Below, one piece after another: positions 5,706 to 63,058 of a DNA stretch of 64,000 nt. Every line of letters begins with the position of its first letter. The stretch's first letter is position 1. The DNA is from Pseudomonadota bacterium (GTDB taxonomy: Bacteria; Pseudomonadota; Gammaproteobacteria; JAKAQQ01): contig JAJZYM010000001.1 of NCBI GenBank assembly GCA_021798115.1, forward strand, positions 44,421 to 108,420, written 5' to 3'. Made by a program: the position numbers and the translations under genes. The notes beneath the pieces are model-generated. The model worked only from the letters and a program-made list of their open reading frames with translations. It was not told the DNA's origin and did no database searches.

Positions 5706-8502
5706 GCAGGGCGGTGCTCCGCAGTTGACCAGTGCGGGCCAGGGAGACGGGCTTGCCGTCGAGGAAGATTCGGCAATCCTGAACGTTGGCCACCCGTGCA
5801 CGGACCGGGACTGTACCGTCCAGCCGTGCCGCGAAGCCCAAGGCATTCTCTCGATAGTCCGCAATCGCCGCGTTGGCACTGACGATGTAGGGACGCTTCG
5901 GAGGTCTTGGCTGCAAAGCAAGGTAGACTGAGTCCTGCCCGTCCGTGTGCACATACCAACGTCCGTTGGGAGAGGCATCGTATCCGGCTATGCCCTCGCT
6001 CTGCCTCAGATCGGGGTAGCCGAGCTCCTTGGGCATGCGCAACTCGCGTAACGCCCGGGCCCCGCCGATCCAAAAGCCGTGTCCCTGTCGTGCAATGCGA
6101 ATCGTGAAGAAATTGTTGGCGATCTTCGCATACTCGGCCACGTAGATCGGGGTGATGGGTCGGGCCACAACCCAGTTGTAGACCTTCTCCAAGGCCGAGA
6201 GGGACGCCAGCTTTGTGGCGCTGTACCAGTGAGTGTAGATGTCGATGGGCTTGAGGCGGTGGGGTTTGTCGGTCATTTTGAGAGTTTGGATGACGTCGAT
6301 GAAACCCCAATAGGGTCCGTGCCATTGATTGGTAAAATAATCCTCGTTGGCATCGGGTGCGAAAACCTGAAGCCATTTGCCCCGGAAAATCCCGATGGGC
6401 GGGACGGCGGTGATACTCGGGTTCTGTTTGCTGATATAGCTGTTACCGCCGTTGATGTTTTCCAGCCCGGCCTTATAGGCCAAGCCCACGACCTGAGCGT
6501 CGGGGGCGCAGTCGCCCGACCACTGATCGATCACCACCCGTTTGCCCGGCGGTGCCAGATGTTTGTCGATCCATCGGGCCGCACCCACAGCTTCCATGTA
6601 AGGGCTGAACTTGTAGCCCGGAACCGGAAGATTGATGCCGGGAAAATCCTCTCCCGCTTCAATAGCCGGCCAGTTGAAGGGATGGGACCACATGTGCGAA
6701 CCGATCTCGACATACGGCAACCGGAAGACCTCGCGGGCCACACGCACACCCAAAGGCGCGATGGCGGGGTAGAGACCCCGATCTCCCGGCAGCAAATCAC
6801 CGACGATAACCGAGCCGGTAAAAGGCAGACGGTACTTCTTGAGGATCCGGTCCATGTAGACCTGGCCGGCAATGTGGTAGGGGGGGAAATCAGCCCGACT
6901 CAAGAAGCCATCGCCATCCGTGTGAGCCATGAACAAGCGACGTCCGCTCTCGGTCGTGGTATCGGGCACCGGCATCTTGGGCAAACGTAAGGCTTGCCGG
7001 TAGAGGGCAAAGGGGTCGACCAACCATCGAGTGTCCCGGTTGGGCAGAGTCGTGAGCACGTACGGGCTCAGCACATAGCCGCCCCAGGGGGTAATGGCCG
7101 CGGCATCCTCTTGGGCACCCCTACGGTTCCGCAATTGCAACCAGATTCGACTCCCGACGGGAGCCCGAGCAACAAGAAAATCTCGGGGATCGGGCGTGAC
7201 AGGCATCTCATAATTCATGCGCGACGACGCATGCCGCAGATGCAGGACCCGCACGCGCAGGGAGTGGAACTTTCGCATCCCCAGCGCCTGAAACGCGCGG
7301 GCATCCAGATCGGCCTGGAATCCTCCCATCAAGAGAACAGGTATCCCCTGCTCTTTGGCAACGCGAATCCATTTCGAGAGGGAGGCCAGGTCCTCCACCG
7401 GGTCGCCGTCACTCCAGACCATGATTCCGGCGTACTCACCGGGCACAGGGGGGGGCGGCATCCCTTGGGAGAAACGCCGAAACTTTGGGACATATCCCAG
7501 ATATTCCAACGGCATGATCCCGTACGCGAAGGGGGTGCTGTACTCTTCCGATTGCGCGCTGTCGTAAAGGATCAGGACCTTTCGTGGCATCGGCTCACGG
7601 AGCCCTGCCCCGACGGCGGTGAGCTCGGGATTGCTGACGTAAGGGATGAACCCTGCGGCACGAATCCGTTGGGCATCCCGCCACCAGCCGGTGCGATTGA
7701 GTGTCGCCGGCATATAGTCGAGGACAATCGCCCGCAACCCGTAGCCCTGGGCTTTGTGTAGGTTCCGCAGCAACACCCTGCGCGCCGCCTCCGAAACATG
7801 AGTGAAACGGCGATCCGCCTGCTTCCAACCGCGATACAGAGACTCGGCAAGAACCGCAACGAGGTCCTGATGAATTTTCGGGAGCACGGCAAAGCCGCGA
7901 TTGGCGATGAGTTTGGCATCTGGGTGCGCGGCCTTGATGGCCTTGATCAGCTCCACCAATCCTTTTTCCTGAGCAATACGAGCCTCTCCTTGGGTGGCAG
8001 CATCGTAAGAGTCCAACGTGTCGAGAAAGAAGCCCCGATACCCTTGGCGCCAAACGGGATCAATCACACGGTGGAGCAAATAGTTCCTGCAACGGTCCTT
8101 GGCCAGGTCAATGATTTGTCCACCCCAACTGCGGTTACGGCCCAAAACACAATCGACCGGCATCCGAGCGTAGCGGGAGTCGCCGGGCACGGTCTGACCG
8201 AGACTGATATAGGCAAAGACTAGTTGCCGACGGAAATCCTGAGGCAACCGTTGCTTGCCCGGATTGACGACGAGCCAATCGAAATCGCGAAAGGCCGCCG
8301 GGACCGGCCCCGACCCATAATAAAGGCCGACACTGGGAGATGATGCCTGGGGCGCAGCCCAGGCAACGGCACACCAAGAAACAGCAACGGCGCACCAGCA
8401 ACTCCAAACAAAAACGCACCACTTACCGCTGGGCCGTCGAGATCGAGAGAGATTTCCTGTTGCGTGGACCTCCCGATCCGAGACAAATTTTTCACTCAAC
8501 AC
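5665..8502 (-). CDS. pelA: PelA (GH114 glycoside hydrolase plus polysaccharide deacetylase, multidomain)
   Basis: About 946 aa. The N-terminal region has a GH114-like TIM-barrel (…IANRGFAVLPKI…) and the rest is long and multidomain. A signal-peptide-like segment WCVFVWSCWCAVAVSWCAVAWAAPQ is present. The first ATG at 8595 sits in AT-rich, atypical codons, so the start is more likely GTG/TTG near 8502. The start is uncertain between 8502 and 8595. Confidence 0.65.
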   Translation of the reverse strand: MLSEKFVSDREVHATGNLSRSRRPSGKWCVFVWSCWCAVAVSWCAVAWAAPQASSPSVGLYYGSGPVPAAFRDFDWLVVNPGKQRLPQDFRRQLVFAYISLGQTVPGDSRYARMPVDCVLGRNRSWGGQIIDLAKDRCRNYLLHRVIDPVWRQGYRGFFLDTLDSYDAATQGEARIAQEKGLVELIKAIKAAHPDAKLIANRGFAVLPKIHQDLVAVLAESLYRGWKQADRRFTHVSEAARRVLLRNLHKAQGYGLRAIVLDYMPATLNRTGWWRDAQRIRAAGFIPYVSNPELTAVGAGLREPMPRKVLILYDSAQSEEYSTPFAYGIMPLEYLGYVPKFRRFSQGMPPPPVPGEYAGIMVWSDGDPVEDLASLSKWIRVAKEQGIPVLLMGGFQADLDARAFQALGMRKFHSLRVRVLHLRHASSRMNYEMPVTPDPRDFLVARAPVGSRIWLQLRNRRGAQEDAAAITPWGGYVLSPYVLTTLPNRDTRWLVDPFALYRQALRLPKMPVPDTTTESGRRLFMAHTDGDGFLSRADFPPYHIAGQVYMDRILKKYRLPFTGSVIVGDLLPGDRGLYPAIAPLGVRVAREVFRLPYVEIGSHMWSHPFNWPAIEAGEDFPGINLPVPGYKFSPYMEAVGAARWIDKHLAPPGKRVVIDQWSGDCAPDAQVVGLAYKAGLENINGGNSYISKQNPSITAVPPIGIFRGKWLQVFAPDANEDYFTNQWHGPYWGFIDVIQTLKMTDKPHRLKPIDIYTHWYSATKLASLSALEKVYNWVVARPITPIYVAEYAKIANNFFTIRIARQGHGFWIGGARALRELRMPKELGYPDLRQSEGIAGYDASPNGRWYVHTDGQDSVYLALQPRPPKRPYIVSANAAIADYRENALGFAARLDGTVPVRARVANVQDCRIFLDGKPVSLARTGQLRSTALHVRLQARCVSSRF

Positions 8503-8840
8503 GGAGTTTGCCTGAGCCGCCTCACGCTCCACATCAGTCTCCGCATCTAGAATAATCCTATATTTGAAATGATACCATACCATACTTTTGTCCAAACCCA
8601 GGGGTGGGCGGACCTTAAGGAATCTCCCAACATTCTTCCCATCACCCTCTCATGATCGATATTTGAAAAAATACACATCCCCGGAGATCATCGACCATCG
8701 AATTTCTATTCAGAGGAATAGACACACCGCCGTTCGATATCCATCGCCTCAATCCCCGAGAGAGGGAGAGGCGATGGCCGCGTTGTTCAGGACCTTCTCT
8801 GCGTTAAGGCCCCCCGATTCATAGAGCTCGAGGGCTTCAT
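8503..8840 (-). promoter_or_regulatory. AT-rich putative pel operon promoter/leader region with two ATATTTGAAA direct repeats exactly 100 bp apart (8560-8569 and 8660-8669)
   Basis: A marked AT-rich island in a ~67% GC genome lies immediately upstream of pelA. It carries a repeated 10-mer. No sigma factor consensus could be assigned confidently. Confidence 0.3.
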
Positions 8841-9825: not shown

Positions 9826-9899
9826 TGGCTGGGGGACGTGGATTCGAACCACGGTTCGCGGAGTCAGAGTCCGCTGTCCTACCGCTAGACGATCCCCCA
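9826..9899 (-). tRNA. tRNA-Gln (anticodon CUG)
   Basis: The minus-strand sequence TGGGGGATC GTCT AGCGGTA GGAC A GCGGA CTCTGAC TCCGC GAAC CGTGG TTCGAAT CCACG TCCCCCA G CCA folds as a cloverleaf. It has a U1:A72 pair, G73 discriminator, GGTTCGAATCC T-arm, encoded CCA and a CUG anticodon in a 7-nt loop. Confidence 0.85.
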
Positions 9900-24899: not shown

Positions 24900-25840
24900 T
24901 CACGTCACCCCGCGAGTCAGCTCCTCGAGTCCTTCCTCCAACCCGATCCCGGGAAGCCATGGCTCTTCGCGCAGACGGCCAATACCGGCCCGCGAGAAGC
25001 GAATCGCGCCCGTGGGCTCGGGGACGAAACGGTCGCAAGAGGACGTCGGGCGGCCCGTTCGAGCCGGCAAACGAGTTCCCGCACGCTCACCGACTCCCCG
25101 CGCGCGACATTCACCACCCCGTGGATCTCTCCGAAAAGCGCACGGGCGTTGACGCGCGCAACGTCCCGCACGTGGACAAAATCCCGCTCCTGCAGTCCGT
25201 CGCCGTGCACTTCCAGGGGATCTCCCCGGGCCAGGCGGGTGAGGAATTTCGCGATCACCCCACTGTACGGCGACGCGGGATCCTGGCGGGTGCCGTAGAC
25301 GCTGAAGTCGCGCAACCCCAGCGTCGGATACCCGTGCGGCCGCGCGTAGAGATCCGCGTACGCCTCGTCGACGGCTTTCTCGAGTCCGTAGGGCGACAGC
25401 GGGACGCCCGGAGCCGTTCGGCCACGGGCACCGGGCCGGGATCCCCGTAAACCGCTGCCGAAGAGACGTAGACCAGCGTGCCCCCGCCCGCCGGGCGGCA
25501 TCGAGAACGGCGACGTACCCGAGCACGTTCTCGGAACAGGACGACACCGGGTCCTGGACGCTCCGCTCCACAGAGACCTGGGCGGCCCGATGCAGGACAT
25601 GGGTGACCCCCTGCATGACCCGTTCAAGAAGCGCCGTATCGCGAATGTCGCCGCGGACGAACTCGAGCACCGGATGCACGGGCAGATTCGCCATCCGCCC
25701 GGTTCTGAGGTCGTCGACCACACGGACCCGCTCTCCTTCCGCAAGAAGGAAATCGACGGTAGGCGATCCGATGACCCCCGCCCCACCGGTGACAAGGACG
25801 AGGGGAGGACGGGACGGCGATGCCGTCACGAGACAACCCC
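24900..25840 (-). pseudogene. NAD-dependent epimerase/dehydratase, apparently frameshifted (frame A-B-A)
   Basis: The Rossmann N-terminus VLVTGGAGVIGSPTVDFLL and the C-terminus IGLEEGLEELTRG are in one frame (ORF 24900..26261). The central catalytic part PYGLEKAVDEAYADLYARPHGYPTLGLRDFSVYG (YxxxK region) is in another (ORF 24917..25795). Confidence 0.5.
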
Positions 25841-28105: not shown

Positions 28106-29596
28106 GTGCGCACGACCGTCCACGCTCAGGAGCTCCTACGCGCGATCGACCGCTCGCTCACCGCTCTCGAGGCGTCTCTGCGCCGAGGCCACAGCGAAGA
28201 ATTTCGTGCGTATCTCCGTGTCATGGCGCGCTTTCACCGCTACTCGAGCCGCAACGTCTGGCTCATTCTGCGCCAGCGTCCCGGGGCCCGGCTCGTCGCC
28301 GGCCACGTGCGTTGGCGAAGCCTCGGCCGCCACGTCCGTCAGGGCGAGCGGGGCATCGCTATCCTGGCACCCACGACGAGGCGTCGGCTCGACGCATCCA
28401 GCGGCCGTGAGGAACGCCACATCGAAGGCTTTCACGTCGCCCGCGTCTGGGACCTCGAACAGACGGACGGACGACCGTTGCCGGATTACATTGGCGCCGG
28501 GATCGACGGACAGCTTGATCCCGACACCCTCAGGCGGGCGCTTGAGACCCCCCCCGTCCCGGTCCGCTTCGCCGCGATCCGCGGCGACGGGGAGACCGAC
28601 GGACGGGAAATCCGTCTCGCCCCGGATCTCTCACCGGCCCGTACGCTTGTCGCCCTCGCTCACGAATGGGCCCACGTTCTCCTCCACTTCCGACCCGAGA
28701 GCGACGGGGCGGATCTTCCTGCCGAGGCACGCGAGCTCGAGGCGGAAGGGACCGCCTACGTGGTCGCCGCCCATTTTGGGATTGCGGACCGTTCGGGTTG
28801 CGATTACATCCTCTCCTACGGAGGAAGCGCCGAGAGCCTCGAGCGGCGGATCGAACGGATCCGCTGGGCCTCCGGGACGATTCTCGAGCATCTACGGGTC
28901 CCTGTGGGCGCAGAGGATTCAGGATTGCGCGACCACCTCACCGAGAATGCGTTTCCACTCCTCCCCGAGTCCGGCCCGCTCGGCGAAGGCACGTGCGAAG
29001 CGGGGGCGTCCGCAGGCGGTCTCGAGGAGCACCTGGACATCGCTCCACCAGGTGGCCCGTTCGGCGTAACGCCACGAGAGGCGGGCCTTGGCGGGGAAGA
29101 GGACCTCACGGTACCAGCGCTCGGGATCGGTCTGCCGGGCGAGAAGCGCTTCCTCGCAACGGCAGAGGATCGAGCTCGGATCGGTGATGCCCGGACGCAG
29201 CTCGAGGAGCGAGCGTGCCTCCCCGTGGTCGAAGAGCGCAGCGTAGGTCGGGACTTCGGGGCGCGCGCCGACGAACGTCATGCGCCCCGCGAGGACATCG
29301 ATGAGCTGCGGCCATTCGTCGATCTTGGTGCGCCGAAGCCGGGATCCGATCCGGGTGACTCGGGGGTCCCCCCCGACCGTGAGGGCGGCCCCTCCCATCC
29401 CCGCTCGCATGGTGCGGAATTTGTGAAGCGTGAAGCGACGGCCGCCGCGTCCGAGCCGCTCTTGGCGGTAGAGAACCGGGCGTCCGTCCGCACAGAGGAT
29501 GACGAAAGCGACGACGAGGGCCGGCAACGCCAGGGCGACCAGCAGGACGAACGCCAGGACGATGTCACGTCCCCGGGTACGCCTCACCGGCGGTGA
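28106..29596 (+). CDS. ArdC-like protein: N-terminal ssDNA-binding ArdC-N (DUF1738-like) domain plus HExxH metallopeptidase-like domain
   Basis: ...FHRYSSRNVWLILRQRPGARLVAGHVRWRSLGRHVRQGERGIAILAPTT...VARVWDLEQTDGRPLPDY matches the ArdC-N motif pattern, followed by LAHEWAHVLLH. The ORF stays open to 29596 in GC-rich sequence. The functional protein probably ends near 29000, since the 3' part overlaps the convergent pglC-like gene. Confidence 0.5.
   Translation: MRTTVHAQELLRAIDRSLTALEASLRRGHSEEFRAYLRVMARFHRYSSRNVWLILRQRPGARLVAGHVRWRSLGRHVRQGERGIAILAPTTRRRLDASSGREERHIEGFHVARVWDLEQTDGRPLPDYIGAGIDGQLDPDTLRRALETPPVPVRFAAIRGDGETDGREIRLAPDLSPARTLVALAHEWAHVLLHFRPESDGADLPAEARELEAEGTAYVVAAHFGIADRSGCDYILSYGGSAESLERRIERIRWASGTILEHLRVPVGAEDSGLRDHLTENAFPLLPESGPLGEGTCEAGASAGGLEEHLDIAPPGGPFGVTPREAGLGGEEDLTVPALGIGLPGEKRFLATAEDRARIGDARTQLEERACLPVVEERSVGRDFGARADERHAPREDIDELRPFVDLGAPKPGSDPGDSGVPPDREGGPSHPRSHGAEFVKREATAAASEPLLAVENRASVRTEDDESDDEGRQRQGDQQDERQDDVTSPGTPHRR
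28919..29587 (-). CDS. undecaprenyl-phosphate sugar phosphotransferase (small PglC/WbaP-C-terminal-type bacterial sugar transferase)
   Basis: GTG at 29587 overlaps the TGA of the upstream aminotransferase (GTGA). The sequence LVVAFVILCADGRPVLYRQERLGRGGRRFTLHKFRTM...DEWPQLIDVLAGRMTFVGARPE matches PglC-like motifs. Confidence 0.7.
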   Translation of the reverse strand: MRRTRGRDIVLAFVLLVALALPALVVAFVILCADGRPVLYRQERLGRGGRRFTLHKFRTMRAGMGGAALTVGGDPRVTRIGSRLRRTKIDEWPQLIDVLAGRMTFVGARPEVPTYAALFDHGEARSLLELRPGITDPSSILCRCEEALLARQTDPERWYREVLFPAKARLSWRYAERATWWSDVQVLLETACGRPRFARAFAERAGLGEEWKRILGEVVAQS

Positions 29597-30777
29597 CGCC
29601 CCAGCACGTCCCAGACGACCGCCACCACATCCTCGGCGTCCTCGTCCGCGAGCCCGGGATGAAACGGGAGACTCAGGAGCCTCCGGCCTGCCTCGTGGGT
29701 CCTCGGCAGATCGCCGGGCTGGTAACCGTAACGCTCTCGGTAGTACGGCTGCTCGTGAAGCGGGAGGAAATGCACCGAAGCGCCGATCCCCCGCTCCTGG
29801 AGCTCCTCGAGAATCGTTCCCCGCTCGGCGTCGAGCGCCTCGAGAACGAGACGGACCGGGTAGAGATGGTGGGCGCTCTCCACCCCCGGGCGTGTCACGG
29901 GCCGACGCAGCCAAGGGCAGTCGGCAAACCGAGCGTGGTAGAGAGCGGCGAGTTGCCGCCGCCGTTCCTGGAAGCCGGCAAAGCGCTTGAGTTGCACGAG
30001 GCCGAGTGCCGCCGCCACATCGGTCATGTTGTACTTGTAGCCCGGGGCCAGCACGGCGTACGACCACGGACCCCCGCGTTCGTAGCGACGGTAGGCGTCG
30101 CGGCTGAGACCGTGCAGGGCCAGCGGACGAGCTTTCTCGAGGAAAGCCGGATCGGCAACGAGAAGACCCCCCTCGCCGGTGGTGAGGTTCTTGGTCGCGT
30201 AGAAGCTGAACGCCACCGGATGACCTCCGACCCCCACCGGTCGCCCGCCGCTCGAAGCGCCCAGGGAATGGGCGGCATCCTCGACAAAAAGGAGATCGCG
30301 GGCGGCGCAGAGGGCACGCAGTGCGTCGAGCTCGGCCGGATGCCCGGCGTAGTCGACCGCGATCACGGCCCGCGTGCGCGGACCGATGCGACGGGCGACA
30401 TCGTCGGGATCGAGCGTGAGGACATCGTCGAGCACATCGGCAAACACCGGCCGCGCCCCAAGATGTTCCACGACGTTGGCGGTCGCCGCAAACGTGAGCG
30501 AAGGCACGATCACCTCGTCGCCGGGGCCGATCGCGGCGACGGCGAGGGAGAGATGCAGGGCGGCCGTGCACGAGCTCAGGGCCAGCGCCTCGGTCACGCC
30601 GATCGTCTCGGCCATCGCCCGTTCGAAGGCGGCCACACGCGGACCCGTGGTCAGCCAGCCGGAACGCAAAACCTCGACGACAGCGTTGACCTCATCCTCC
30701 CCGAGACACGGAGGAGCGAGGGGAAGATAGCCGCGGCGTGGACGCGGCGGAGACGAAACGGGCGTGTTCACGACGAA
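29584..30777 (-). CDS. DegT/DnrJ/EryC1/StrS family PLP-dependent sugar aminotransferase
   Basis: ...LSSCTAALHLSL...EVIVPSLTFAATAN...FSFYATKNLTTGEGG.... The start is approximate, with no clear ATG near the expected N-terminus. Confidence 0.75.
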   Translation of the reverse strand, partial: FVVNTPVSSPPRPRRGYLPLAPPCLGEDEVNAVVEVLRSGWLTTGPRVAAFERAMAETIGVTEALALSSCTAALHLSLAVAAIGPGDEVIVPSLTFAATANVVEHLGARPVFADVLDDVLTLDPDDVARRIGPRTRAVIAVDYAGHPAELDALRALCAARDLLFVEDAAHSLGASSGGRPVGVGGHPVAFSFYATKNLTTGEGGLLVADPAFLEKARPLALHGLSRDAYRRYERGGPWSYAVLAPGYKYNMTDVAAALGLVQLKRFAGFQERRRQLAALYHARFADCPWLRRPVTRPGVESAHHLYPVRLVLEALDAERGTILEELQERGIGASVHFLPLHEQPYYRERYGYQPGDLPRTHEAGRRLLSLPFHPGLADEDAEDVVAVVWDVLGRHRR

Positions 30778-31994
30778 GATTCGAAACGGGGATCGACAGC
30801 GCGCGCGAAGAGGGCTCGCGTTGCGCGGTAACCGATCGATCGAGCATACCAGCAACGGGCCGCTTCCGCCAGGGGGCGGAGTCGTTCAGGCTCATCCACG
30901 AGAAGCAGGCGAAGAGCGCCCACGAACGCCGCGCGATCCCCGGCCGGAACACTCACGCCCGCCCCGCTCCGTGCGAGAAGATCGGCGGTGTCGCCCGTCC
31001 CCGCAAAGAGCACGGGGCAGCCTTGCGCCAGATAATCGTAGACCTTGCTTGGCAGAGCCTCCGCAAAGAAAGGAACGGGGACATAAGCGTGCAAGCCCAG
31101 GGCGCAGCGCGCAAGCACCGCCCGGCAGATCCGTCTCGGGAGCGCCCCGAGCGCGTGGACGTTCGCCCCGCAGGCTCGGGCCCGCGCGACGAGCGGCGCT
31201 TTTTCCCCCGCCCCGATCATGAGCAGCCCCACCTCGGGGCAATCGGCAAGCGCCGCAAAGGCGTCCAGAAGAAACGCAACGTCGTTGGCGCGACCGTAAC
31301 CTCCGGCGTACACCGCCCAGCGACGGACTCCTTCGGGCAGGGGCGGCAGAGGGACCTCCCCCGCAGGCATGGACGGTGGAGCATCCGGAGCCAGATAGAC
31401 GTCGGCGTTCGGGAGCAGCGTGAGCTTCTCCTCGGGCACGCCCTCGGCACGCAAGCGGCGTCGTTGTCCCGGCGTCGCGACGAGAAGGTGATCGGCACGC
31501 CGGCGCAGACGTCGGGCCAGCGCGCCGAGAAGACGGGTCACGGCTCCCGGGCGCAGCACTCCCAGGGCCAGGGCCGTCTCGGGGTAAAGATCGCGTTCGT
31601 CGAGCACGAGCCGAGCGCGCTTGAGACGCGCCAGACCGGAAGCCAGAGGCACAAGGGGGAAGGGATCGGTGCCGACGAAGACCACCGAACAGGAGCCCGT
31701 CGCGACGCCGGCGAGCACGAAGGCACCCACAGCAAAAAGCCCGTAATGGAGGACGCGTCGGAGCAGGCTCCGACGGTGGTCGACGAGCCCCGGGGCTCTG
31801 AGGATCCGCAGATCCGGGTCCGCCGGCCGCCGGGCCAGCGCACGGCCCGTCATGTAATTCGTGCGGGCGGTGACGACGGTGACCCGCCAGCCCAGATCAC
31901 GAAGGAGACGAACCTCCATCCACGGCCGAAAGGCGCCCACGTCCTCATCGTCCGGAAGGTGATAGCTCAAAACCAGGACGTGCGGTCGACTCAC
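30768..31994 (-). CDS. glycosyltransferase family 4 (GT-B)
   Basis: 408 aa whose C-terminal half has GT4 features (...VYAGGYGRANDV...PSKVYDYLAQGCPVLF...). The GTG start overlaps the TGA of the upstream gene. Confidence 0.7.
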   Translation of the reverse strand: MSRPHVLVLSYHLPDDEDVGAFRPWMEVRLLRDLGWRVTVVTARTNYMTGRALARRPADPDLRILRAPGLVDHRRSLLRRVLHYGLFAVGAFVLAGVATGSCSVVFVGTDPFPLVPLASGLARLKRARLVLDERDLYPETALALGVLRPGAVTRLLGALARRLRRRADHLLVATPGQRRRLRAEGVPEEKLTLLPNADVYLAPDAPPSMPAGEVPLPPLPEGVRRWAVYAGGYGRANDVAFLLDAFAALADCPEVGLLMIGAGEKAPLVARARACGANVHALGALPRRICRAVLARCALGLHAYVPVPFFAEALPSKVYDYLAQGCPVLFAGTGDTADLLARSGAGVSVPAGDRAAFVGALRLLLVDEPERLRPLAEAARCWYARSIGYRATRALFARAVDPRFESSS

Positions 31995-33109
31995 CGTCCG
32001 GCCAAGGCCTCGCGGACAGCGGCCACAATGCGGGCCACGTCTTCGTCCGTCAGTCCGTGGTGAACGGGAAGCGACAGGACACGGGCGGCCAGGGTCTCGG
32101 TCACCGGGCAGGGGGGTGCGGCGGAACCCAGCGCGGCAAACACGGGCTGCTGGTGCACGCCACGCGGGTAATGAACAGCGCTTGGAACACCCCGTGCCGC
32201 GAGACGACGGGCGAGTTCGTCGCGGTCCATCCCCGCGGCGTCGGGGTCGACGACGATCGTGTACTGGTGCCAGGCGTGCACCCCCCCCGTGGTCACCGTC
32301 GGCAACCGCAGTCCCGCAAGGTCCGCCAGACCTTCCCCAAGCAGTCGGGCGTTCCGCGCCCGCCGCTCAAGCATCGCCGGGAGACGGCGAAGCTGACTGC
32401 GGCCGATCGCCGCTTCGACGTCGGTCATGCGGTAGTTGTAGCCGAGAACGGTGTGGAGATATTTGCCGGACTGACCGTGGCTGCGCAGAAGGCGCAGACG
32501 CTGGGCCAGTTCGCCGTCCCCGGTAGTGATCATCCCGCCTTCACCGACGAACAGGTTTTTCGACGGGTAGAAGGAATAGCAGACGGCGTCACCGAGGGCG
32601 CCCACGTCGCGCCCGTGGCATCGGGCCCCGTGCGCCTGAGCGGCGTCGTAGATCAAGAAAAGACCGTGCTCGCGGGCGAAGGCGGCGTAGTCCTCATGCA
32701 CACAGGGGTTGCCGTAAAGATGAACGGGAGCGATCGCCCGTGTGCGGGGACCGAGACGGCGGCGGGCATCGTCAAGATCAAGATGGAACGTGACCGGATC
32801 GACATCGCAGGCGACGACTTTTGCGCCGACAAGCGCCGCCATGGAGGCCGTGGCGACGAACGTAAACGAGGGAACGAGGATCTCGTCGCCCGGCCGGAGG
32901 AGAGCGTGGTAAACGAGGTGGAGCGCGGCCGACCCGTTCGCGCAGCTCACGGCGTGCGCGGCGCCGGTGGCGGCGGCGAATTCCTTCTCGAAGGCGGCAC
33001 ACTCGGGTCCTTCGCGCAACGCACCGGAACGCAGCACAGCGACGGCCGCCGCAATGTCCTCTTCGGAGAGGACGATCTGGGCCATGGACAGGGGACGGGT
33101 CTGATTCAC
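31991..33109 (-). CDS. DegT-family sugar aminotransferase (WbpE/WlbC-like, UDP-3-keto-sugar transaminase)
   Basis: ...VSCANGSAALHLVY...EILVPSFTFVATAS...YSFYPSKNLFVGEGG... at 372 aa. The ATG overlaps the stop of the upstream oxidoreductase. Confidence 0.75.
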   Translation of the reverse strand: MNQTRPLSMAQIVLSEEDIAAAVAVLRSGALREGPECAAFEKEFAAATGAAHAVSCANGSAALHLVYHALLRPGDEILVPSFTFVATASMAALVGAKVVACDVDPVTFHLDLDDARRRLGPRTRAIAPVHLYGNPCVHEDYAAFAREHGLFLIYDAAQAHGARCHGRDVGALGDAVCYSFYPSKNLFVGEGGMITTGDGELAQRLRLLRSHGQSGKYLHTVLGYNYRMTDVEAAIGRSQLRRLPAMLERRARNARLLGEGLADLAGLRLPTVTTGGVHAWHQYTIVVDPDAAGMDRDELARRLAARGVPSAVHYPRGVHQQPVFAALGSAAPPCPVTETLAARVLSLPVHHGLTDEDVARIVAAVREALAGR

Positions 33110-34104
33110 GAAAGAGCCTCAAGTTGATCGAGCAGGGTATGAAGGGGAACCGATTCATCGAAACCCGCGACGGGCGGAGGCGTTTGGGCCCGCGCCGCGT
33201 CGAGAAACACGCGGGCCTGGCGGAGATAGAGGTCGTCGCCGGGCGGGGGGAGTACCGTGCGGCCGGCGCTGTAGTCCCCGCCCCCACCCAGACTGTGGAC
33301 ATACGAAGGACGGTCGGCTTCGATCGACCCCCAGAACGTACCACGCTCGCCCTCGAGCTCGACGAACTGGACGAACCCGGGGCTCAGGAGGTCGCACGCC
33401 ACATGGAACGGGCGTCCCTCCCGGTCCACGTAGAGGAGAAGCACGGCATCTTCGGCGTCGGCCGCCACGTCTTCGCCATCGATTCGGCGCCGTCCTCGGA
33501 GCAGACGGCGATCCAGCAGGCGGACTTCGCGCGGAGGGCCAACGTACCAGAGCAGAAGATCGAGCATGTGGACCGCCATCTCGCGCAGCGCCCCACCTCC
33601 CTCATCCCGCCGGTGCTTCCACGCGCGGTGCGAGCCCCGCCCGCCGAGACGGAACCAGCCGTGGACGAGTCCGCCAAGAGGGCCCGCTCCGGGATCATCC
33701 TGCGCCAGCCGGCAAAGGCGCCGTCCTTCGGCGAACACAGCGGCGTGACGGTAGAGATAGCCCACCATCCCCACGAGACGGCGCTTTCGTGCGTCGTCAG
33801 CCAAAGACGCGGCTTCGGCAGCGTTGCCCGCAAGAGGCTTTTCACACAAGCAGTGTTTGCCGGCGGCCAGAGCCTGGGCCACAAGATCGGCGTGGCTCGG
33901 CGTTGGCGTGGCCACAACCACAGCTTGGGCGCGATCGCTCCACACCGCCGCGACGTCCAGGGGGTCGAGACCGAGACGCTGGGCCAGATCCCGCGCCCGT
34001 CCCGGGTCGGCGTCGGCGACGGCGATGCGCTCGACACCGGCGGCCCGGAACGCCCGGGCGTGCTTTTCTGCCTGTTTTCCCGCTCCGAGGATTGCGATGT
34101 CCAT
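33106..34104 (-). CDS. Gfo/Idh/MocA-family NAD-dependent oxidoreductase (WbpB/WlbA-like UDP-sugar 3-dehydrogenase)
   Basis: [19 protein letters not shown]...AVVVATPTPSHADLVAQALAAGKHCLCEKP matches the Rossmann and EKP motif. Confidence 0.7.
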   Translation of the reverse strand: MDIAILGAGKQAEKHARAFRAAGVERIAVADADPGRARDLAQRLGLDPLDVAAVWSDRAQAVVVATPTPSHADLVAQALAAGKHCLCEKPLAGNAAEAASLADDARKRRLVGMVGYLYRHAAVFAEGRRLCRLAQDDPGAGPLGGLVHGWFRLGGRGSHRAWKHRRDEGGGALREMAVHMLDLLLWYVGPPREVRLLDRRLLRGRRRIDGEDVAADAEDAVLLLYVDREGRPFHVACDLLSPGFVQFVELEGERGTFWGSIEADRPSYVHSLGGGGDYSAGRTVLPPPGDDLYLRQARVFLDAARAQTPPPVAGFDESVPLHTLLDQLEALS

Positions 34105-34739
34105 CAGGTCTCAGCCTCGTCCTCGAGCCAGCGGTCCCAGGAGCGTGCGCGGTTGCGCTCGCGCAGGGACGCGGGCAGCGGGACCCAGCGGGCCGGCACA
34201 CCGCGAACGAGCATCCCGGGCGGTACGTCCTTGGTCACGACGGCTCCGGCCGCGACAAAGCTTCCCGCACCGATGCGGACGCCCGGGCAGATCACCACAC
34301 CGGCGCCCAGCGTGACGTCGTCCTCGAGAATGGGCCCTTCGGGCCGGTAGGTCGCCCGCTGCCGCAGCGGGTAGCGATCGTTGGTGAGCGTCGCGTGAGG
34401 GCCGAGAAACACCCGACTCCCGATCGTGGTGTCGGTGGGAATGTAGCAGCCCGTCTCGATCTTGACGAAATCGCCGATGCGGGTGCGCCCGTCGAGGACA
34501 CTTGCCGTTCCCACCATGACGTGGGCCCCAAGGACCGTTTCCTCACGGATGAGCACGTTGTGGCCGGTGGCAAAATCCTCCCCCGCACGGACATCACCGT
34601 AGATGATTGTCCCGGAACGGATGCGGGCACCGCCCTCAAGAACGAAGGGGCCGCACTCAGGACGGTAACGCACGCCGAGTCGGCAACCCGGATCCACCTC
34701 GGGGGGGATGGCCGCCTGAAGATAATGCTCGTCACCCAC
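34104..34739 (-). CDS. left-handed beta-helix (hexapeptide-repeat) N-acetyltransferase (WbpD/WlbB-like)
   Basis: Hexapeptide repeats run throughout (…[61 protein letters not shown]…). Confidence 0.7.
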
Positions 34740-38313: not shown

Positions 38314-38870
38314 CCAGTTTGTGTGCACGGCACCTTCCATCCCCGCTCGGCCAGATCCGCAAGAATCCGCATCGTCACTTCCTCGGGAGTGCGCCCGGTG
38401 GTGTCCACAACCAAGTGAGCCAGTGCTTCGTAATGAGGAACGCGGGCGGCGTTAATCGGGGCCAGCACATCCAGCCCACGGGAAAGCAAAGGGCGTACGG
38501 TGTCTCTGGCCAGTCTCTTCCGTTGTTCCTCCTCCGTGACCGCGCAATAAACCACGGTTGTCTTCCGGGCGAGAAGAAGGCGGTTTCGGGCGAGGAGCAC
38601 AACCCCCCCTCCGGGCGTCAGAACACAGGGTGAGGCCTCAAGAACGCTTCTCAAAAGCTGGCTTTCCCAGCGACGAAATTCTCGCTCCCTGCCCGTGGCA
38701 AAGAGCGACGTGATGGGCATCCCGAGGCGCTCCTCGAGAAGACGATCGAGATCCACATGTGAGCGCCCCAGGCGACGGGCCAGAAGTTCGCCTACGGTGG
38801 TCTTCCCGGCCCCCATCGGGCCGATCAAACAGAGCGTCGTGTCCCGGACGGAACGCCGCGACTCCGTCAC
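38310..38870 (-). CDS. aroK: shikimate kinase
   Basis: LCLIGPMGAGKTTVGELLARRL is a Walker A motif. The protein is 186 aa and its ATG overlaps the upstream stop. Confidence 0.85.
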   Translation of the reverse strand: MTESRRSVRDTTLCLIGPMGAGKTTVGELLARRLGRSHVDLDRLLEERLGMPITSLFATGREREFRRWESQLLRSVLEASPCVLTPGGGVVLLARNRLLLARKTTVVYCAVTEEEQRKRLARDTVRPLLSRGLDVLAPINAARVPHYEALAHLVVDTTGRTPEEVTMRILADLAERGWKVPCTQTG

Positions 38871-40300
38871 GGACGCGGGTTGGGCGTCCCGTCCGTCACC
38901 CGTTCGCTCAGAATCCCCCCGGGGGTATGGCTCAGAACCTCAAGACGGGCGTCCCGACCATAGACCTGGACGGTGTAGCACCCTCGCTCGGCATCGGCGC
39001 CGAAAAGGCAGGATCCGCTAGGCGCCAGAACATTCGGAACGACAGCGACCCGAGGGGCCACAACACGCCCTCCAATAGCCCGGAACTCGAGACGGGTCCC
39101 GGCCGGGAGAGAACGCCCGCCAGCGGAGGTGACCGAAACAAGAGCGCTATAGCCACCGACCAACGGACGGCGTGAGACGAGGCGAATATGAACTCTGTCC
39201 CCGACGACGGCGAAAACGGCACGGCCCCTCAGAGGAGACCCAGCCTCTTCGGTCCGTGCACGAACCCAAACCTTCCCGTACCCCTCCGAAGCCAGCGTCG
39301 AGGCGTTTTCCTTCCAGAGGACACGGCATTGCCCATCACGGAGGACACAGCTCCGGAGAAGAGTCCCGCGGCTGGCTCTCAGGACGATTTTTGTCCCGTC
39401 GGCAAGAGGTATGCCCTGGCTCCCGTTGGCAACGATGAGGAGGGATTCGGACGCACGACCGTCCAGCGTTCCAAGGTTCAGAACGGTCGGGACCACGGAG
39501 AGAGAGGCCGTCTGGATAGAGGCAGCAGCATGAAAGGCTTCCGACACACTTCCGACGCCAGGCCCGTTTCTACCGACCAACCGGGCCAGGACCCGAACCG
39601 ACCCGCCGACGGCGGGGACGGTCAGCATCCCAAAAACTGTTCCTCCCGGACCGCTGCGTACAAAGTGGGTGCTCAACAGGCTCTGTGACCCACCGAGTAC
39701 GGAGAGTGCAACGGAGCGCCCGGGTTCGGGCGTGCCTTGCGGATTGCGGACAATGAAACCGACACGGACGGCCGTCCCTGGACTTATGAAACGCGGCGGA
39801 GCATCGACCCGTGGCACAACCGCATCGACCACGGCGGGCGACGAGGAGGAGATCGTGATGGTTCCGACCGCGATGAGATTGGAGCCGTTCACCTGGGCCG
39901 TGGCTTGAATGGTGTCGGTCCCGCTGCATCCGGTTCCCGCATTGTACGTGGCCACCGCTTCGCCCGAGGCATTGGTCGTCACGCTGGAGGTGATCGTCGC
40001 CTCCTTGTTAAGCACACAGTTCGAGCTGAAGTTCACCGTTGTGGGGACCGTGTACGCCGCTCCGGTGCTGTACTGGAGCACGGCGGTCACGGTGGCCGTT
40101 CCTCCGGGGGCAATCGTCGACGGACTCACGGCAAGGGCGCCGCTGGTGAAGGCTCCGTTTACCACGCTGCCCATCTCGAGCTGACCCGCGGCTTGGGAGG
40201 TCGAAGTAAAGCCCTGGCTCCCGCCGCAGGCGGCCAACAAAAGGAGAAGTCCTGAGGCAAGGAAGAGACGGAGAGCGGGACGGGACGTTGTGGCGTTCAT
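38867..40300 (-). CDS. lipoprotein with repeated Ig-like (Big-type) beta domains, function unknown
   Basis: Signal peptide with lipobox LLLLAACGG. The Ser/Thr/Gly/Val-rich beta-strand repeats contain Cys pairs. It sits between pilQ and aroK, co-directional and abutting both. Confidence 0.5.
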   Translation of the reverse strand: MNATTSRPALRLFLASGLLLLLAACGGSQGFTSTSQAAGQLEMGSVVNGAFTSGALAVSPSTIAPGGTATVTAVLQYSTGAAYTVPTTVNFSSNCVLNKEATITSSVTTNASGEAVATYNAGTGCSGTDTIQATAQVNGSNLIAVGTITISSSSPAVVDAVVPRVDAPPRFISPGTAVRVGFIVRNPQGTPEPGRSVALSVLGGSQSLLSTHFVRSGPGGTVFGMLTVPAVGGSVRVLARLVGRNGPGVGSVSEAFHAAASIQTASLSVVPTVLNLGTLDGRASESLLIVANGSQGIPLADGTKIVLRASRGTLLRSCVLRDGQCRVLWKENASTLASEGYGKVWVRARTEEAGSPLRGRAVFAVVGDRVHIRLVSRRPLVGGYSALVSVTSAGGRSLPAGTRLEFRAIGGRVVAPRVAVVPNVLAPSGSCLFGADAERGCYTVQVYGRDARLEVLSHTPGGILSERVTDGTPNPRP

Positions 40301-53061: not shown

Positions 53062-54126
53062 ATGAGCTCAGATTCACCCAAAACCTTTGACATCGGACAG
53101 CTTCTGGCGTTCAGCGTCCGACAAAAAGCGTCCGATCTGCACCTTTCGGCCGGCGAGCCTCCCATGATCCGGGTTGACGGCGACATCCGCCGCATCAATC
53201 TCCCGGCTCTCGCCCACAAGGAAGTGCGCGACATGGTCTATGACATCATGAACGACAAGCAGAGAAAGCAATACGAGGAGTTTCTCGAATGTGACTTCTC
53301 TTTTGAAGTCGAGTCTCTCGCCCGGTTCCGGGTCAACGCGTTCAACCAGAGGCGCGGTGCGGGGGTGGTGTTCCGCACTATTCCTTCCGTCGTTCAGAGT
53401 CTCGAAGAACTCGGCTCTCCCAAAACCTTTTCACAGCTGACCAGCGCCCCTCGCGGCCTCGTGCTTGTCACGGGACCGACCGGTTCGGGGAAATCGACGA
53501 CGCTCGCGGCGATGATCGATCACGTTAACGAAACACGCATGTCGCACATCCTCACGGTCGAGGATCCGATCGAGTTCGTACACGGTTCCAAAAAATGTCT
53601 GATCAACCAGCGCGAAGTCCACAGCCACACGCTCGGCTTCGCCGAGGCCCTCCGCTCGGCCCTGCGCGAAGATCCAGACATCATCCTCGTCGGCGAGATG
53701 CGCGATCTCGAAACCATACGGCTGGCTTTGACCGCCGCCGAAACCGGGCACCTCGTCTTTGCCACACTCCACACCAGTTCAGCCGCCAAAACCATCGACC
53801 GTATCGTTGATGTCTTCCCGGCTGCTGAGAAAGACATGGTTCGCACCATGCTGTCGGAATCCCTCAACGCCGTCATTGCCCAACGCCTCCTCAAGCGTCC
53901 GGGTGGTGGGCGGGTCGCCGCATACGAGGTGATGATCGCCACCCCCGCCATACGAAACCTGATTCGCGAAAACAAGGTGGCCCAGATGTATTCCATGATC
54001 CAGACCGGACAGTCCGTCGGCATGATGACTCTCGACCAGTGTCTCGCCGACTATCTTCGCCGCGGCTTGATCACACGCGACCAAGCCCTTGAAGCGGCAA
54101 CCAGCAAAGACCTCGTGGCACGCTGA
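53062..54126 (+). CDS. pilT: type IV pilus retraction ATPase PilT
   Basis: ...ASDLHLSAGEPPMIRVDGD..., Walker A GPTGSGKSTT, and ...VGEMRDLETIRLALTAAETGHLVFATLHT... at 354 aa. Confidence 0.9.
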   Translation: MSSDSPKTFDIGQLLAFSVRQKASDLHLSAGEPPMIRVDGDIRRINLPALAHKEVRDMVYDIMNDKQRKQYEEFLECDFSFEVESLARFRVNAFNQRRGAGVVFRTIPSVVQSLEELGSPKTFSQLTSAPRGLVLVTGPTGSGKSTTLAAMIDHVNETRMSHILTVEDPIEFVHGSKKCLINQREVHSHTLGFAEALRSALREDPDIILVGEMRDLETIRLALTAAETGHLVFATLHTSSAAKTIDRIVDVFPAAEKDMVRTMLSESLNAVIAQRLLKRPGGGRVAAYEVMIATPAIRNLIRENKVAQMYSMIQTGQSVGMMTLDQCLADYLRRGLITRDQALEAATSKDLVAR

Positions 54127-54137
54127 GGAAGCCAACC

Positions 54138-55295
54138 ATGGAACGCGAACAAGCCGTCAAATTCATGCAGGATCTCCTGCGTATCATGGTCCAGCGCCAA
54201 GCCTCCGATCTCTTCATTACCGCCCAGTTCCCGCCGGCACTCAAGATCGACGGTGAGATCCAAGCCGTTACCGACCGACCCTTCAACGAAGAACAGACCG
54301 CGGTTCTCGTGCGCGCCATCATGAACGACCGTCAGAGCCGCGAGTTCGACGCCACCAAGGAACTCAGTTTTGCCATCAGCCCTCGGGGCATCGGCCGTTT
54401 TCGTGTCAGTGCCTATCTTGAGCAAGGCCGAGTCGGCGCGGTCCTGCGCGTGATCAACACCGACGTGCCGACACTCGAAAAGCTTGGTTTGCCCCTGATC
54501 ACCCACGACATTGCCATGTCCAAGCGCGGGCTCGTGCTCGTCGTCGGTGCCACCGGTTCGGGCAAGTCCACAACCCTCGCGGCCATGGTCCGCCACCGCA
54601 ACGAAAACAGCCGCGGGCATATTGTGACGATCGAAGACCCGATCGAGTATGTGCACCGCCACATGGGATGCATCGTCACTCAGCGCGAGCTCGGAGTCGA
54701 CACGGAGTCGTGGGAGAACGCCCTCAAAAACACGCTCCGTCAAGCTCCCGATGTCATTCTCATCGGCGAAATCCGCGAACAAACGACGATGCAGTACGCG
54801 GTCGAATTTGCCGAAACCGGCCACCTCTGCCTGAGCACGCTCCACGCGAACAGTGCCAATCAGGCGCTCGATCGCATCATCAATCTCTATCCCAAAGAGA
54901 AACGGCAACAACTGCTCATGGATCTCTCCCTCAACCTCCGAGGCATGATCTCACAACGGCTTCTGCGCAAGGCAAGCGGCGAGGGACGCATCGCCGCGAT
55001 GGAGATTCTCATCAACACACCCTACGTCGCCGATCTGATTTTCAAAGGGGAAGTGGCTCAGCTCAAGGAGGTCATGGCCCGCTCCCGCCAAGCCGGCATG
55101 CAGACCTTTGACCAACATCTCTTTGATCTTTACGAGGAGAAAGCCATCACCTACGAAGAGGCGCTGCGGAACGCCGATTCGCAAAACGAGCTCCGTCTTC
55201 GCATCAAACTCGAAAGCAAACGTAGCCCGCAATCGTTCGACCAGGAAATCGAGACCCTGCATCTGCAGGACGTCGATTCCGGTCGCCCGCTGTGA
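54138..55295 (+). CDS. pilU: PilT-family ATPase PilU
   Basis: ...ASDLFITAQFPPALKIDGE..., GATGSGKSTT, IGEIREQTTMQYAVEFAETGHLCLSTLHA and a C-terminal extension at 385 aa. It is immediately downstream of pilT. Confidence 0.85.
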   Translation: MEREQAVKFMQDLLRIMVQRQASDLFITAQFPPALKIDGEIQAVTDRPFNEEQTAVLVRAIMNDRQSREFDATKELSFAISPRGIGRFRVSAYLEQGRVGAVLRVINTDVPTLEKLGLPLITHDIAMSKRGLVLVVGATGSGKSTTLAAMVRHRNENSRGHIVTIEDPIEYVHRHMGCIVTQRELGVDTESWENALKNTLRQAPDVILIGEIREQTTMQYAVEFAETGHLCLSTLHANSANQALDRIINLYPKEKRQQLLMDLSLNLRGMISQRLLRKASGEGRIAAMEILINTPYVADLIFKGEVAQLKEVMARSRQAGMQTFDQHLFDLYEEKAITYEEALRNADSQNELRLRIKLESKRSPQSFDQEIETLHLQDVDSGRPL

Positions 55296-55305
55296 GACGA
55301 CGGCC

Positions 55306-61421: not shown

Positions 61422-61541
61422 AAATGAAGCTCCCGAGGGACACCTCATCATAAGCGGAGTCCATGACTCACGGACGAAAACGCGCCATAGTGGCCGCGGT
61501 TGACGCTCGCGCAACGAGGCAGGGAGGCGGAAGATGCCTCC

Positions 61542-62690: not shown

Positions 62691-63058
62691 CGATCCTGAA
62701 CCATCGGCTTGTCGCCGCCTTCGTTCTGTTGCTCGCGGCCGGACTCGTTTCGTCGGCTGTCCGGGCCCGTCCCCGTCCTCGGCTCATTATCGTCAACAGC
62801 ACGCTCCTTTCTGACCACGGATGGAGGACACAGCGCAGTCTCGAGGACACGCTGCAACGGTGGTGTCGCCGGACGCACAGCCGCCTTGTCTGGCGCCCTC
62901 GCCACGACTACCGGCTTGAGGCACAGGCGACCTTTCACGGTTCTTTTGTCCACGCTCTCGATGTCCTCGCCCGTGCTCTCGCTCTCGCTCACGTCCCGCT
63001 CGCCCTTCGCTACTACCGTGGCAATCGCGTCTTGGTGGTCAAGAGATGGACGCCGTGA
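62687..63058 (+). CDS. small secreted protein (signal peptide), candidate PilM(R64)/TcpQ/BfpG-type secretin-associated protein
   Basis: This ORF is not in the supplied ORF track and was read directly from the sequence. ATG at 62687 overlaps the upstream TGA. The 123-aa product (MTILNHRLVAAFVLLLAAGLVSSAVRA...LEDTLQRWCRRTHSRLVWRPRHDYRLEAQATFHGSFVHALDVLARALALAHVPLALRYYRGNRVLVVKRWTP) ends with TGA at 63056-63058. Confidence 0.4.
   Translation: MTILNHRLVAAFVLLLAAGLVSSAVRARPRPRLIIVNSTLLSDHGWRTQRSLEDTLQRWCRRTHSRLVWRPRHDYRLEAQATFHGSFVHALDVLARALALAHVPLALRYYRGNRVLVVKRWTP

Follow-up and report, generated by a model that had tools for sequence, protein, structure and literature searches.

The window, a 64,000-nucleotide stretch of the gammaproteobacterial assembly GCA_021798115.1 (Pseudomonadota bacterium, lineage JAKAQQ01; contig JAJZYM010000001.1, positions 44,421 to 108,420 of the forward strand), contains a cassette of six minus-strand genes at positions 28919-34739, discussed here as a possible unit for making the first two sugars of a surface glycan. 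The cassette had been noted in an original prediction, and both the number and the position of its genes are borne out by open reading frame (ORF) coordinates and Pfam families. The six genes, followed by the neighbouring features referred to below, are:

34104-34739, minus strand: left-handed beta-helix (LbH, hexapeptide) sugar N-acetyltransferase of 211 aa, gene 1 of the cassette (Pfam Hexapep, 1e-22)
33106-34104, minus strand: Gfo/Idh/MocA NAD-dependent sugar oxidoreductase of 332 aa (Pfam GFO_IDH_MocA, 8e-21, plus the C3 domain)
31991-33109, minus strand: DegT/DnrJ/EryC1 pyridoxal phosphate-dependent sugar aminotransferase 1, of 372 aa (Pfam DegT_DnrJ_EryC1, 3.9e-117)
30768-31994, minus strand: GT4 (GT-B) glycosyltransferase of 408 aa (Pfam Glyco_trans_4_4, Glyco_trans_1_4 and Glycos_transf_1)
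29584-30771, minus strand: DegT aminotransferase 2, ArnB/PseC-like, of 395 aa (Pfam DegT, 8e-115)
28919-29587, minus strand: small monotopic PglC-type polyprenyl-phosphate phosphoglycosyltransferase (PGT) of 222 aa, the last cassette gene (Pfam Bac_transf, 2.9e-43)
28106-28918, plus strand: real coding part, about 271 aa, of a convergent ArdC-family gene (Pfam ArdcN and Peptidase_M78)
28919-29596, plus strand: stop-free antisense 'shadow' of the PGT gene, recognised by its substitution pattern against the related locus L007
34792-35427, minus strand: gmk, guanylate kinase (Pfam Guanylate_kin, 4e-46)
about 24900-25830, minus strand: NAD-dependent epimerase/dehydratase pseudogene, GalE/TviC-like (Pfam Epimerase halves in two frames)

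Each stop codon within the cassette overlaps the start of the next gene, the junctions reading, in order, TGATG, GTGA, GTGA, GTGA and GTGA. Coupling through ATGA/GTGA overlaps had been proposed; the four 4-nt GTGA overlaps agree with this, but acetyltransferase and oxidoreductase share a single nucleotide, in TGATG and not ATGA. The same 1/4/4/4/4 pattern is found in L007, where gmk also precedes the cassette in an identical arrangement, with a gap of 29 nt instead of the 52 nt of the window. The long GTG start of the acetyltransferase at 34739 is backed by L007, L011, L013 and L015, alignments with which start from residue 1. The six genes are not a free-standing operon: the cassette forms the tail of a co-directional run comprising pilM-N-O-P-Q, a lipoprotein gene, aroK, aroB, pyrF, hemE and gmk, and most junctions from pilMNOPQ to gmk overlap too. 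A consensus scan of 27.5-36 kb revealed no promoter-like site, terminator-like sites in the same interval were no more frequent than in shuffled sequences, and the gap after gmk holds only a weak 5-bp hairpin. GC content around the locus is about 0.68 and that of the cassette equals that of its flanks which, together with the identical arrangement in L007, indicates that the insertion is old; the cassette is no recent island. Comparison of the window with five independent assemblies, from five samples, gives 20-26 single-nucleotide polymorphisms and no indels across 21 kb, which rules out an assembly artefact.

The last gene of the cassette is hidden in most public annotations. Gene calls from JGI, ENA, Logan and NCBI almost always give a 496-aa plus-strand ORF at 28106-29596 rather than the PGT, whose gene is called on just seven short contigs. 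This ORF overlaps the whole PGT gene and has the same length of 496 aa in L007. Its ArdcN and M78/ImmA-like metalloprotease domains lie within residues 8-224 (Pfam), and its ArdC-family homologues (e.g. a Meiothermus 'ArdC family protein') are 262-306 aa long and reach only to around residue 265-285 of the window protein. Across the overlap, the window and L007 align without gaps over 669 nt, at 75% identity. In the PGT frame, substitutions fall 41/33/94 at codon positions 1/2/3 and produce 66 synonymous and 57 non-synonymous codon changes, leaving 74% amino-acid identity, versus 15 synonymous and 108 non-synonymous changes and 52% identity in the antisense frame. The first 271 ArdC-family codons show 39/33/123 substitutions by codon position and 78% amino-acid identity. 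These patterns indicate that the PGT and the ArdC-family gene are both real, and convergent; the 225-residue tail of the 496-aa ORF is unconstrained read-through. GC by codon position was uninformative for the PGT and the antisense ORF, since GC1 is close to GC3 and the frames are codon-aligned mirror images. The ArdC-family gene adjoins the PGT stop codon and lacks a stop of its own; it thus swallows the PGT in most public annotations, so that the cassette appears to lack an initiating transferase. TTA, CTA and TCA codons are absent from all six cassette genes, leaving the codon-aligned antisense frames without stops, and full-length mirror plus-strand ORFs lie opposite each of these genes (e.g. 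29593-30831, 30738-32063, 32057-33127 and 33124-34350). Such antisense open frames are a general gene-calling trap in this high-GC genome.

All six cassette genes are under purifying selection. Ratios of non-synonymous to synonymous substitution rates (dN/dS) were calculated by the Nei-Gojobori method between the window and L007, a relative about 78% identical whose cassette proteins are 74-88% identical to those of the window. They are 0.09 for the acetyltransferase, 0.13 for the oxidoreductase, 0.07 for aminotransferase 1, 0.13 for both the GT4 and aminotransferase 2, and 0.23 for the PGT; the cassette range of 0.07-0.23 stands beside 0.10-0.18 for aroK, aroB, pyrF, hemE and gmk.

The first three genes form a trio that the original prediction had called WbpD/WbpB/WbpE-like. 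The enzyme families do match, and the LbH protein is of the QdtC/WlbB class, but orthology is not supported, as the oxidoreductase falls outside WbpB/WlbA and no cassette protein attains an NCBIfam equivalog cut-off. The closest solved relatives of the acetyltransferase in the PDB are QdtC (9.7e-29), a WxcM-like protein (4mzu, 4e-15) and WlbB (3mqg, 6.3e-15), and it carries no PglD_N domain (Pfam). By class membership, which does not prove its substrate, it is a WbpD/WlbB-class LbH enzyme. The QdtC/WlbB LbH class acetylates C3 amino groups, and these 3-amino-sugar N-acetyltransferase relatives fit a sequence of oxidation, amination and N-acetylation at C3.

The oxidoreductase stands further from characterised enzymes. 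In phmmer searches of the PDB it matches Thermus WbpB (3o9z) at 1.6e-5; GnnA matches at 7e-9, through the N-terminal Rossmann part only, while unrelated Gfo/Idh/MocA enzymes match at about 1e-15. When a profile built from 27 oxidoreductase sequences was searched against the PDB, inositol dehydrogenases (2e-35), GenD2 and KijD10 outranked both GnnA and the entries 3q2i and 3q2k (about 1e-22), which we take to be WlbA structures. Against the NCBIfam model of the archaeal UDP-GlcNAc 3-dehydrogenase (NF040723) the protein scores 53 bits, the cut-off being 450. A Foldseek search with its AlphaFold model (mean predicted local distance difference test, pLDDT, 94.8) placed scyllo-inositol, levoglucosan, GenD2 and KanD2 dehydrogenases first and returned GnnA at template-modelling (TM) scores of 0.80-0.88, with WbpB outside the top 50. 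An assignment as an orthologue of WbpB/WlbA, of GnnA or of the archaeal 3-dehydrogenase was thus rejected by phmmer, family profile, NCBIfam and structure comparison alike, and the oxidoreductase belongs to a small separate clade, neither WbpB/WlbA nor GnnA. By sequence and structure its neighbours include GnnA and sugar C3 dehydrogenases that have partner aminotransferases (GenD2, KanD2), as well as the 3-ketoreductase KijD10 and levoglucosan 3-dehydrogenase. Since many of these act at sugar C3, and several together with an aminotransferase, the analogy 'oxidise, then aminate' holds, whereas WbpB orthology does not.

An EKP motif and other residues are invariant across this clade, which comprises about 100 clusters at 50% identity above about 200 bits among 1.84 billion representatives; generic Gfo/Idh/MocA relatives at E<=1e-10 number 63,142 in the same set. 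A scan of genome contigs with the oxidoreductase alignment gave at least four clear clade members among the matches listed, the others being generic Gfo/Idh/MocA proteins. The homologues P0035 and P0039 lie beside glycosyltransferases of about 800 aa; having no acetyltransferase or aminotransferase partner, they were left out of the trio statistics. At L093 (10001-13514) and L094 (10001-13308), more distant clade members are coupled to GT4-type glycosyltransferases of about 800 aa, with sulfatase and M20 peptidase genes nearby; as acetyltransferase and aminotransferase partners are missing there, the keto-sugar may be put to another use.

Aminotransferase 1 is roughly equidistant from C3- and C4-acting DegT enzymes, its best PDB matches being 7b0d (4e-71), perosamine synthetase (2e-68), 2oga (2e-67), WbpE (1.4e-59) and QdtB (2e-59). 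Searches of the literature available to us found no characterised non-WbpB route.

The order acetyltransferase-oxidoreductase-aminotransferase is kept in eight loci (L007, L008, L009, L011, L012, L013, L015 and L016), all bacterial save L015, a metagenome-assembled genome of Hadarchaeota. Identities across these loci are 50-63% for the acetyltransferase, 31-44% for the oxidoreductase and 43-59% for aminotransferase 1. In a ninth, L010, the aminotransferase lies apart on the other strand. The setting of the trio in related loci is one of Wzx (Polysacc_synt), Wzy_C, glycosyltransferase, methyltransferase and Wzz/tyrosine-kinase genes, and genes of the wzx, wzy or chain-length type surround the trio or the block in L009, L011, L012, L016 and the P0033 locus. 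Epimerase_2 genes adjoin the trio in L009, L010 and L011. The block as a whole recurs in L012, in the order acetyltransferase-(GNAT)-oxidoreductase-aminotransferase-GT4-DegT-Bac_transf, which is that of the window. In L008 (1-19008) the trio and a GT4 are followed by PglC-, PglD-, PglE- and PglF-like genes and a Wzy_C protein, and this locus may be a complete glycosylation system built on the same sugar. Upstream in L008 lie PMT_2, GT2, radical-SAM/SPASM, polysaccharide-deacetylase and methyltransferase genes.

The presence of a GT4, a second DegT protein and a small PglC-type initiating PGT in the remainder of the cassette, as proposed earlier, agrees with the Pfam assignments and the PglC motifs. 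The GT4 has a weak match to the WcaI family of NCBIfam (77 bits, cut-off 276) and no sequence match in the PDB, and a GT4 of 26-29% identity occupies the equivalent position in L008 and L012. Aminotransferase 2 scores 354 bits against ArnB (cut-off 631) and 348 bits against PseC (cut-off 423.5) in NCBIfam, and matches ArnB at 7e-86 and WbpE at 4e-34 in the PDB; these comparisons mark it as ArnB/PseC-like, of the predicted 4-aminotransferase type. Its 42%-identical homologue in L012 lies directly before a small Bac_transf gene.

In the PGT, the Bac_transf match spans profile positions 3-174 of 179, and residues 9-31 form a hydrophobic N-terminal stretch, IVLAFVLLVALALPALVVAFVIL. It aligns with PglC (8e37) at 8e-15, with KFRTM in register and the Asp-Glu dyad as DEWPQL versus DELPQL, and its GARP aligns with GPRP of both PglC and L007. 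Domain, size, the one N-terminal hydrophobic helix and these motifs thus mark it as a predicted small monotopic phosphoglycosyltransferase of the PglC type. Nothing sets it apart within its very large family, in which relatives of about 200 aa number over 4300; its C-terminal third diverges from most of them, their alignments covering 69-85% of the query.

What the window lacks was assessed by Pfam scans of plausible ORFs of at least 180 aa across its 64 kb and by tblastn at E<=0.01 with Pfam-verified queries from related loci (UDPG_MGDP_dh from L013, a PglF-like protein, three Wzx, three Wzy_C, Epimerase_2 and PMT_2). No query gave a tblastn match in the window, except for a PglD-like protein that touches the acetyltransferase. 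These searches confirm the earlier statement that the window is devoid of flippase, polymerase, oligosaccharyltransferase and UDP-sugar 6-dehydrogenase genes: within the 64 kb we found no Wzy/WaaL/PglL, PglB, Wzx or chain-length regulator, and also no PglF-type 4,6-dehydratase, no WbpI-type 2-epimerase (Epimerase_2 domain) and no PglD_N-type acetyltransferase. The missing WbpA, to which the original prediction had drawn attention, is indeed absent but is no anomaly, since a UDP-sugar 6-dehydrogenase (UDPG_MGDP_dh) lies within about 10 kb of the trio in one of the eight annotated trio loci (L013) and in none of the other seven; a missing WbpA is therefore normal for the clade. The nearby epimerase described as frameshifted proved to be a true pseudogene, with Pfam Epimerase halves in two frames and two or more frameshifts that several independent assemblies share unchanged. 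Its best NCBIfam matches, GalE and TviC, lie far under their cut-offs, and it is not present in L007. A link between this pseudogene and the cassette was considered and dropped, none being demonstrable.

Gene content, the overlaps at the junctions, catalytic motifs, purifying selection and the conservation of both the trio and the block order were all observed directly. From these we propose that the cassette is a functional, self-contained 'first two sugars' unit for a surface glycan, which would place two amino sugars on a lipid carrier, and we give this reading a probability of roughly 0.55. Substrates, regiochemistry, which sugar is added first and what finally accepts the glycan are what we infer. 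The oxidoreductase would convert a secondary hydroxyl of a UDP-HexNAc, most likely C3 of UDP-GlcNAc, to a ketone, which aminotransferase 1 would turn into an amine, and the QdtC/WlbB-class acetyltransferase would N-acetylate this amine to give a UDP-2,3-diacetamido-2,3-dideoxyhexose. This product would be neutral, or a uronic acid if a 6-dehydrogenase encoded elsewhere acts first; judged by the related trio loci, the neutral sugar seems at least as likely as the uronic acid. Aminotransferase 2 would aminate a UDP-4-keto sugar supplied by a dehydratase encoded outside the window, the PGT would move the resulting 4-amino sugar-1-phosphate onto undecaprenyl phosphate (Und-P), and the GT4 would add the diacetamido sugar, yielding an undecaprenyl pyrophosphate-linked (Und-PP-) disaccharide. 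As there is no PglD-type acetyltransferase, the 4-amino group of the first sugar may stay free, or else the one LbH enzyme may acetylate both sugars. Flipping, and then polymerisation, ligation or transfer to protein, would be encoded elsewhere in the genome. The cassette is best seen as the precursor-plus-initiation block of a Wzx/Wzy-type system, here standing alone. As the original prediction held, the glycan and its acceptor cannot be read from the window, and the Und-PP-disaccharide may be destined for O-antigen, capsule, core cap or protein O-glycan.

Several points weigh against this proposal. In NCBIfam, all six cassette proteins stay below the equivalog cut-offs. With many Gfo/Idh/MocA enzymes at an equal distance from it, the oxidoreductase does not fix substrate or regiochemistry, and aminotransferase 1 scores slightly better against the C4-acting perosamine synthetase than against WbpE. 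The window holds neither a 4,6-dehydratase to serve aminotransferase 2 nor a flippase or an acetyltransferase of the PglD type, so that the pathway as proposed would need genes from outside it. Finally, L013 (2204-17151) has both a UDPG_MGDP_dh and an AsnB-like glutamine amidotransferase near its trio, which makes a uronic-acid substrate possible for the clade and suggests that the organism of L013 may make the sugar as a uronamide.

This last locus also speaks for the alternative that survives best, which we nevertheless regard as unlikely, namely that the trio is functionally WbpB/WbpE/WbpD of the canonical WbpA-dependent route and converts UDP-GlcNAcA, made by a WbpA encoded elsewhere, to UDP-GlcNAc3NAcA. 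The Wbp pathway uses the same three enzyme families as the trio (PMC10622841), and one member of the oxidoreductase clade bears the JGI label 'UDP-N-acetyl-2-amino-2-deoxyglucuronate dehydrogenase'. The oxidoreductase is, however, no orthologue of WbpB/WlbA, the window has neither a 6-dehydrogenase nor a WbpI-type 2-epimerase, and seven of the eight annotated trio loci are without the former nearby. A bolder version of our own proposal, which we consider quite doubtful, is that the trio represents a third lineage of nucleotide-sugar 3-amination, independent of WbpB/WlbA and GnnA, present in bacteria and archaea and leading from UDP-GlcNAc to neutral UDP-GlcNAc3NAc; the cassette would then have been cut loose from a Wzx/Wzy cluster and wired into a housekeeping operon, where its Und-PP-disaccharide, made constitutively, would serve general protein O-glycosylation or cap the LPS (lipopolysaccharide) core.

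Dedicated protein O-glycosylation, of pilin or more generally, in which a PglL/TfpO-type enzyme encoded elsewhere transfers the Und-PP-disaccharide, is compatible with the chemistry proposed above but is itself improbable. A small PglC-type PGT, a 4-aminotransferase, a single GT and no polymerase would suit such a system, the block of L008 ends in a protein of the Wzy_C family, which also contains PglL-type transferases, and type IV pilus genes lie within the same co-directional run. Nevertheless, these are the pilMNOPQ assembly genes in their usual aroK-aroB synteny, and not pilA or modification genes. The arrangement pilMNOPQ-aroK-aroB is widespread and unrelated to pilin glycosylation. Moreover, no oligosaccharyltransferase or Wzy_C protein is encoded in the 64 kb, and homologous blocks lie inside Wzx/Wzy/Wzz polysaccharide clusters in most related loci, so that the earlier idea of a pgl-like, pilus-linked cassette gains nothing from the context.

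It is very improbable that the cassette is what decay has left of a larger polysaccharide cluster acquired by horizontal transfer, and that it now lies stranded by a mobile-element ArdC-family gene and no longer makes its glycan. Such a history could be read from the missing dehydratase, PglD, wzx and wzy, which accompany the block in other genomes, from the epimerase pseudogene 3 kb away, and from the adjoining ArdC-family gene, of a kind typical of conjugative elements, having lost its own stop codon. Yet the six ORFs are intact, their overlaps are conserved in two lineages about 25% apart in nucleotides, their dN/dS equals that of flanking essential genes and their GC matches the flanks; selection, the PglC motifs, the invariant EKP and the confident oxidoreductase fold together make decay unlikely. 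Least probable is a role in lipid A or LPS-core modification in the manner of GnnA/GnnB, with UDP-GlcNAc3N made for a diamino-sugar lipid A backbone: GnnA is likewise a Gfo/Idh/MocA enzyme paired with a DegT aminotransferase and a good structural match to the cassette enzyme, but its sequence match is confined to the N-terminal Rossmann part, no lpx genes are adjacent, and only an Und-P-linked glycan would account for the tight linkage of N-acetyltransferase, GT4 and PGT.

Other features of the window were noted in passing. Between pilQ and aroK, at 38867-40300 on the minus strand, lies the gene for a predicted 477-aa lipoprotein with no Pfam or NCBIfam match, which one JGI annotation omits; its 65% identity to L007 and dN/dS of 0.20 indicate that it is real. 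The start of a Pel exopolysaccharide operon (1645-8595, minus strand) runs off the start of the window and encodes PelA (976 aa, with a GH114 domain) and PelB (1313 aa, with TPR and a PelB C-terminal beta-barrel). Its GC content is lower (0.57-0.63 versus 0.68) and a tRNA gene lies just beyond, at 9829-9899 on the minus strand. A link between the Pel genes and the cassette was considered and dropped, as the evidence was wanting. On the plus strand, three T2SSE-family (PilT/PilU-type) ATPase genes stand in a row at 53062-56361, followed by recG, ubiC and ubiA, and a 531-aa protein with a C-terminal TcpQ domain (toxin-coregulated-pilus biogenesis, 1e-14) is encoded at 61463-63058.

Taken as surface-glycan precursor synthesis plus initiation, the cassette is an ordinary, well-known kind of system. 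Its points of interest are modest: an uncharacterised, phylogenetically broad oxidoreductase clade in the place of WbpB/GnnA, and an initiating PGT hidden by an antisense ORF. If the chemistry proposed here is true, the trio would be a compact three-gene route to 2,3-diacetamido sugars without WbpA, which would help to annotate many environmental polysaccharide loci and serve the chemoenzymatic synthesis of rare sugars.

Among known systems, WbpB/WbpE/WbpD (WlbA/WlbC/WlbB) of the UDP-ManNAc3NAcA pathway in Pseudomonas aeruginosa, Bordetella pertussis and Thermus thermophilus resemble the trio in having the three families adjacent and, as far as the logic can be inferred, in oxidising, aminating and acetylating in turn. 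Unlike that pathway, the cassette has a non-orthologous oxidoreductase, neither WbpA nor WbpI, and the gene order acetyltransferase-oxidoreductase-aminotransferase. GnnA/GnnB of Acidithiobacillus ferrooxidans and the archaeal UDP-GlcNAc 3-dehydrogenase pathway (NF040723) act on UDP-GlcNAc without a 6-dehydrogenase, as suggested here for the cassette. GnnA is a close structural match to the cassette oxidoreductase, although in sequence the likeness does not go beyond the Rossmann half. The product of GnnA/GnnB goes into lipid A, and no N-acetyltransferase, GT or PGT is linked to this pair, whereas the trio always has its N-acetyltransferase. The aminoglycoside 3''-dehydrogenase/aminotransferase pairs GenD2/GenS2 and KanD2/KanS2 supply some of the best matches to the oxidoreductase. 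GenD2 and KanD2 are Gfo/Idh/MocA dehydrogenases that make a C3 ketone for the partner aminotransferase, but they act on pseudo-oligosaccharide antibiotics and not on nucleotide sugars, share about 24-25% identity with the cassette enzyme and lie in another genomic context.

For the initiating half of the cassette, the nearest parallel is the pgl initiation module of Campylobacter and Neisseria (PglF, PglE, PglD and PglC), in which a small monotopic Asp-Glu PGT likewise lies beside a DegT protein of the 4-aminotransferase type. The window differs in having no PglF-like dehydratase, PglD_N-type acetyltransferase, oligosaccharyltransferase or flippase, and aminotransferase 2 is nearer to ArnB than to any pgl enzyme in PDB searches. 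The WcfR/WcfS pair of Bacteroides fragilis and the WbgX/WbgY pair of Shigella sonnei make 2-acetamido-4-amino-2,4,6-trideoxygalactose. In Wzx/Wzy O-antigen and capsule clusters, wzx, wzy and a chain-length regulator are adjacent, whereas none of the three lies in the window that holds this cassette.

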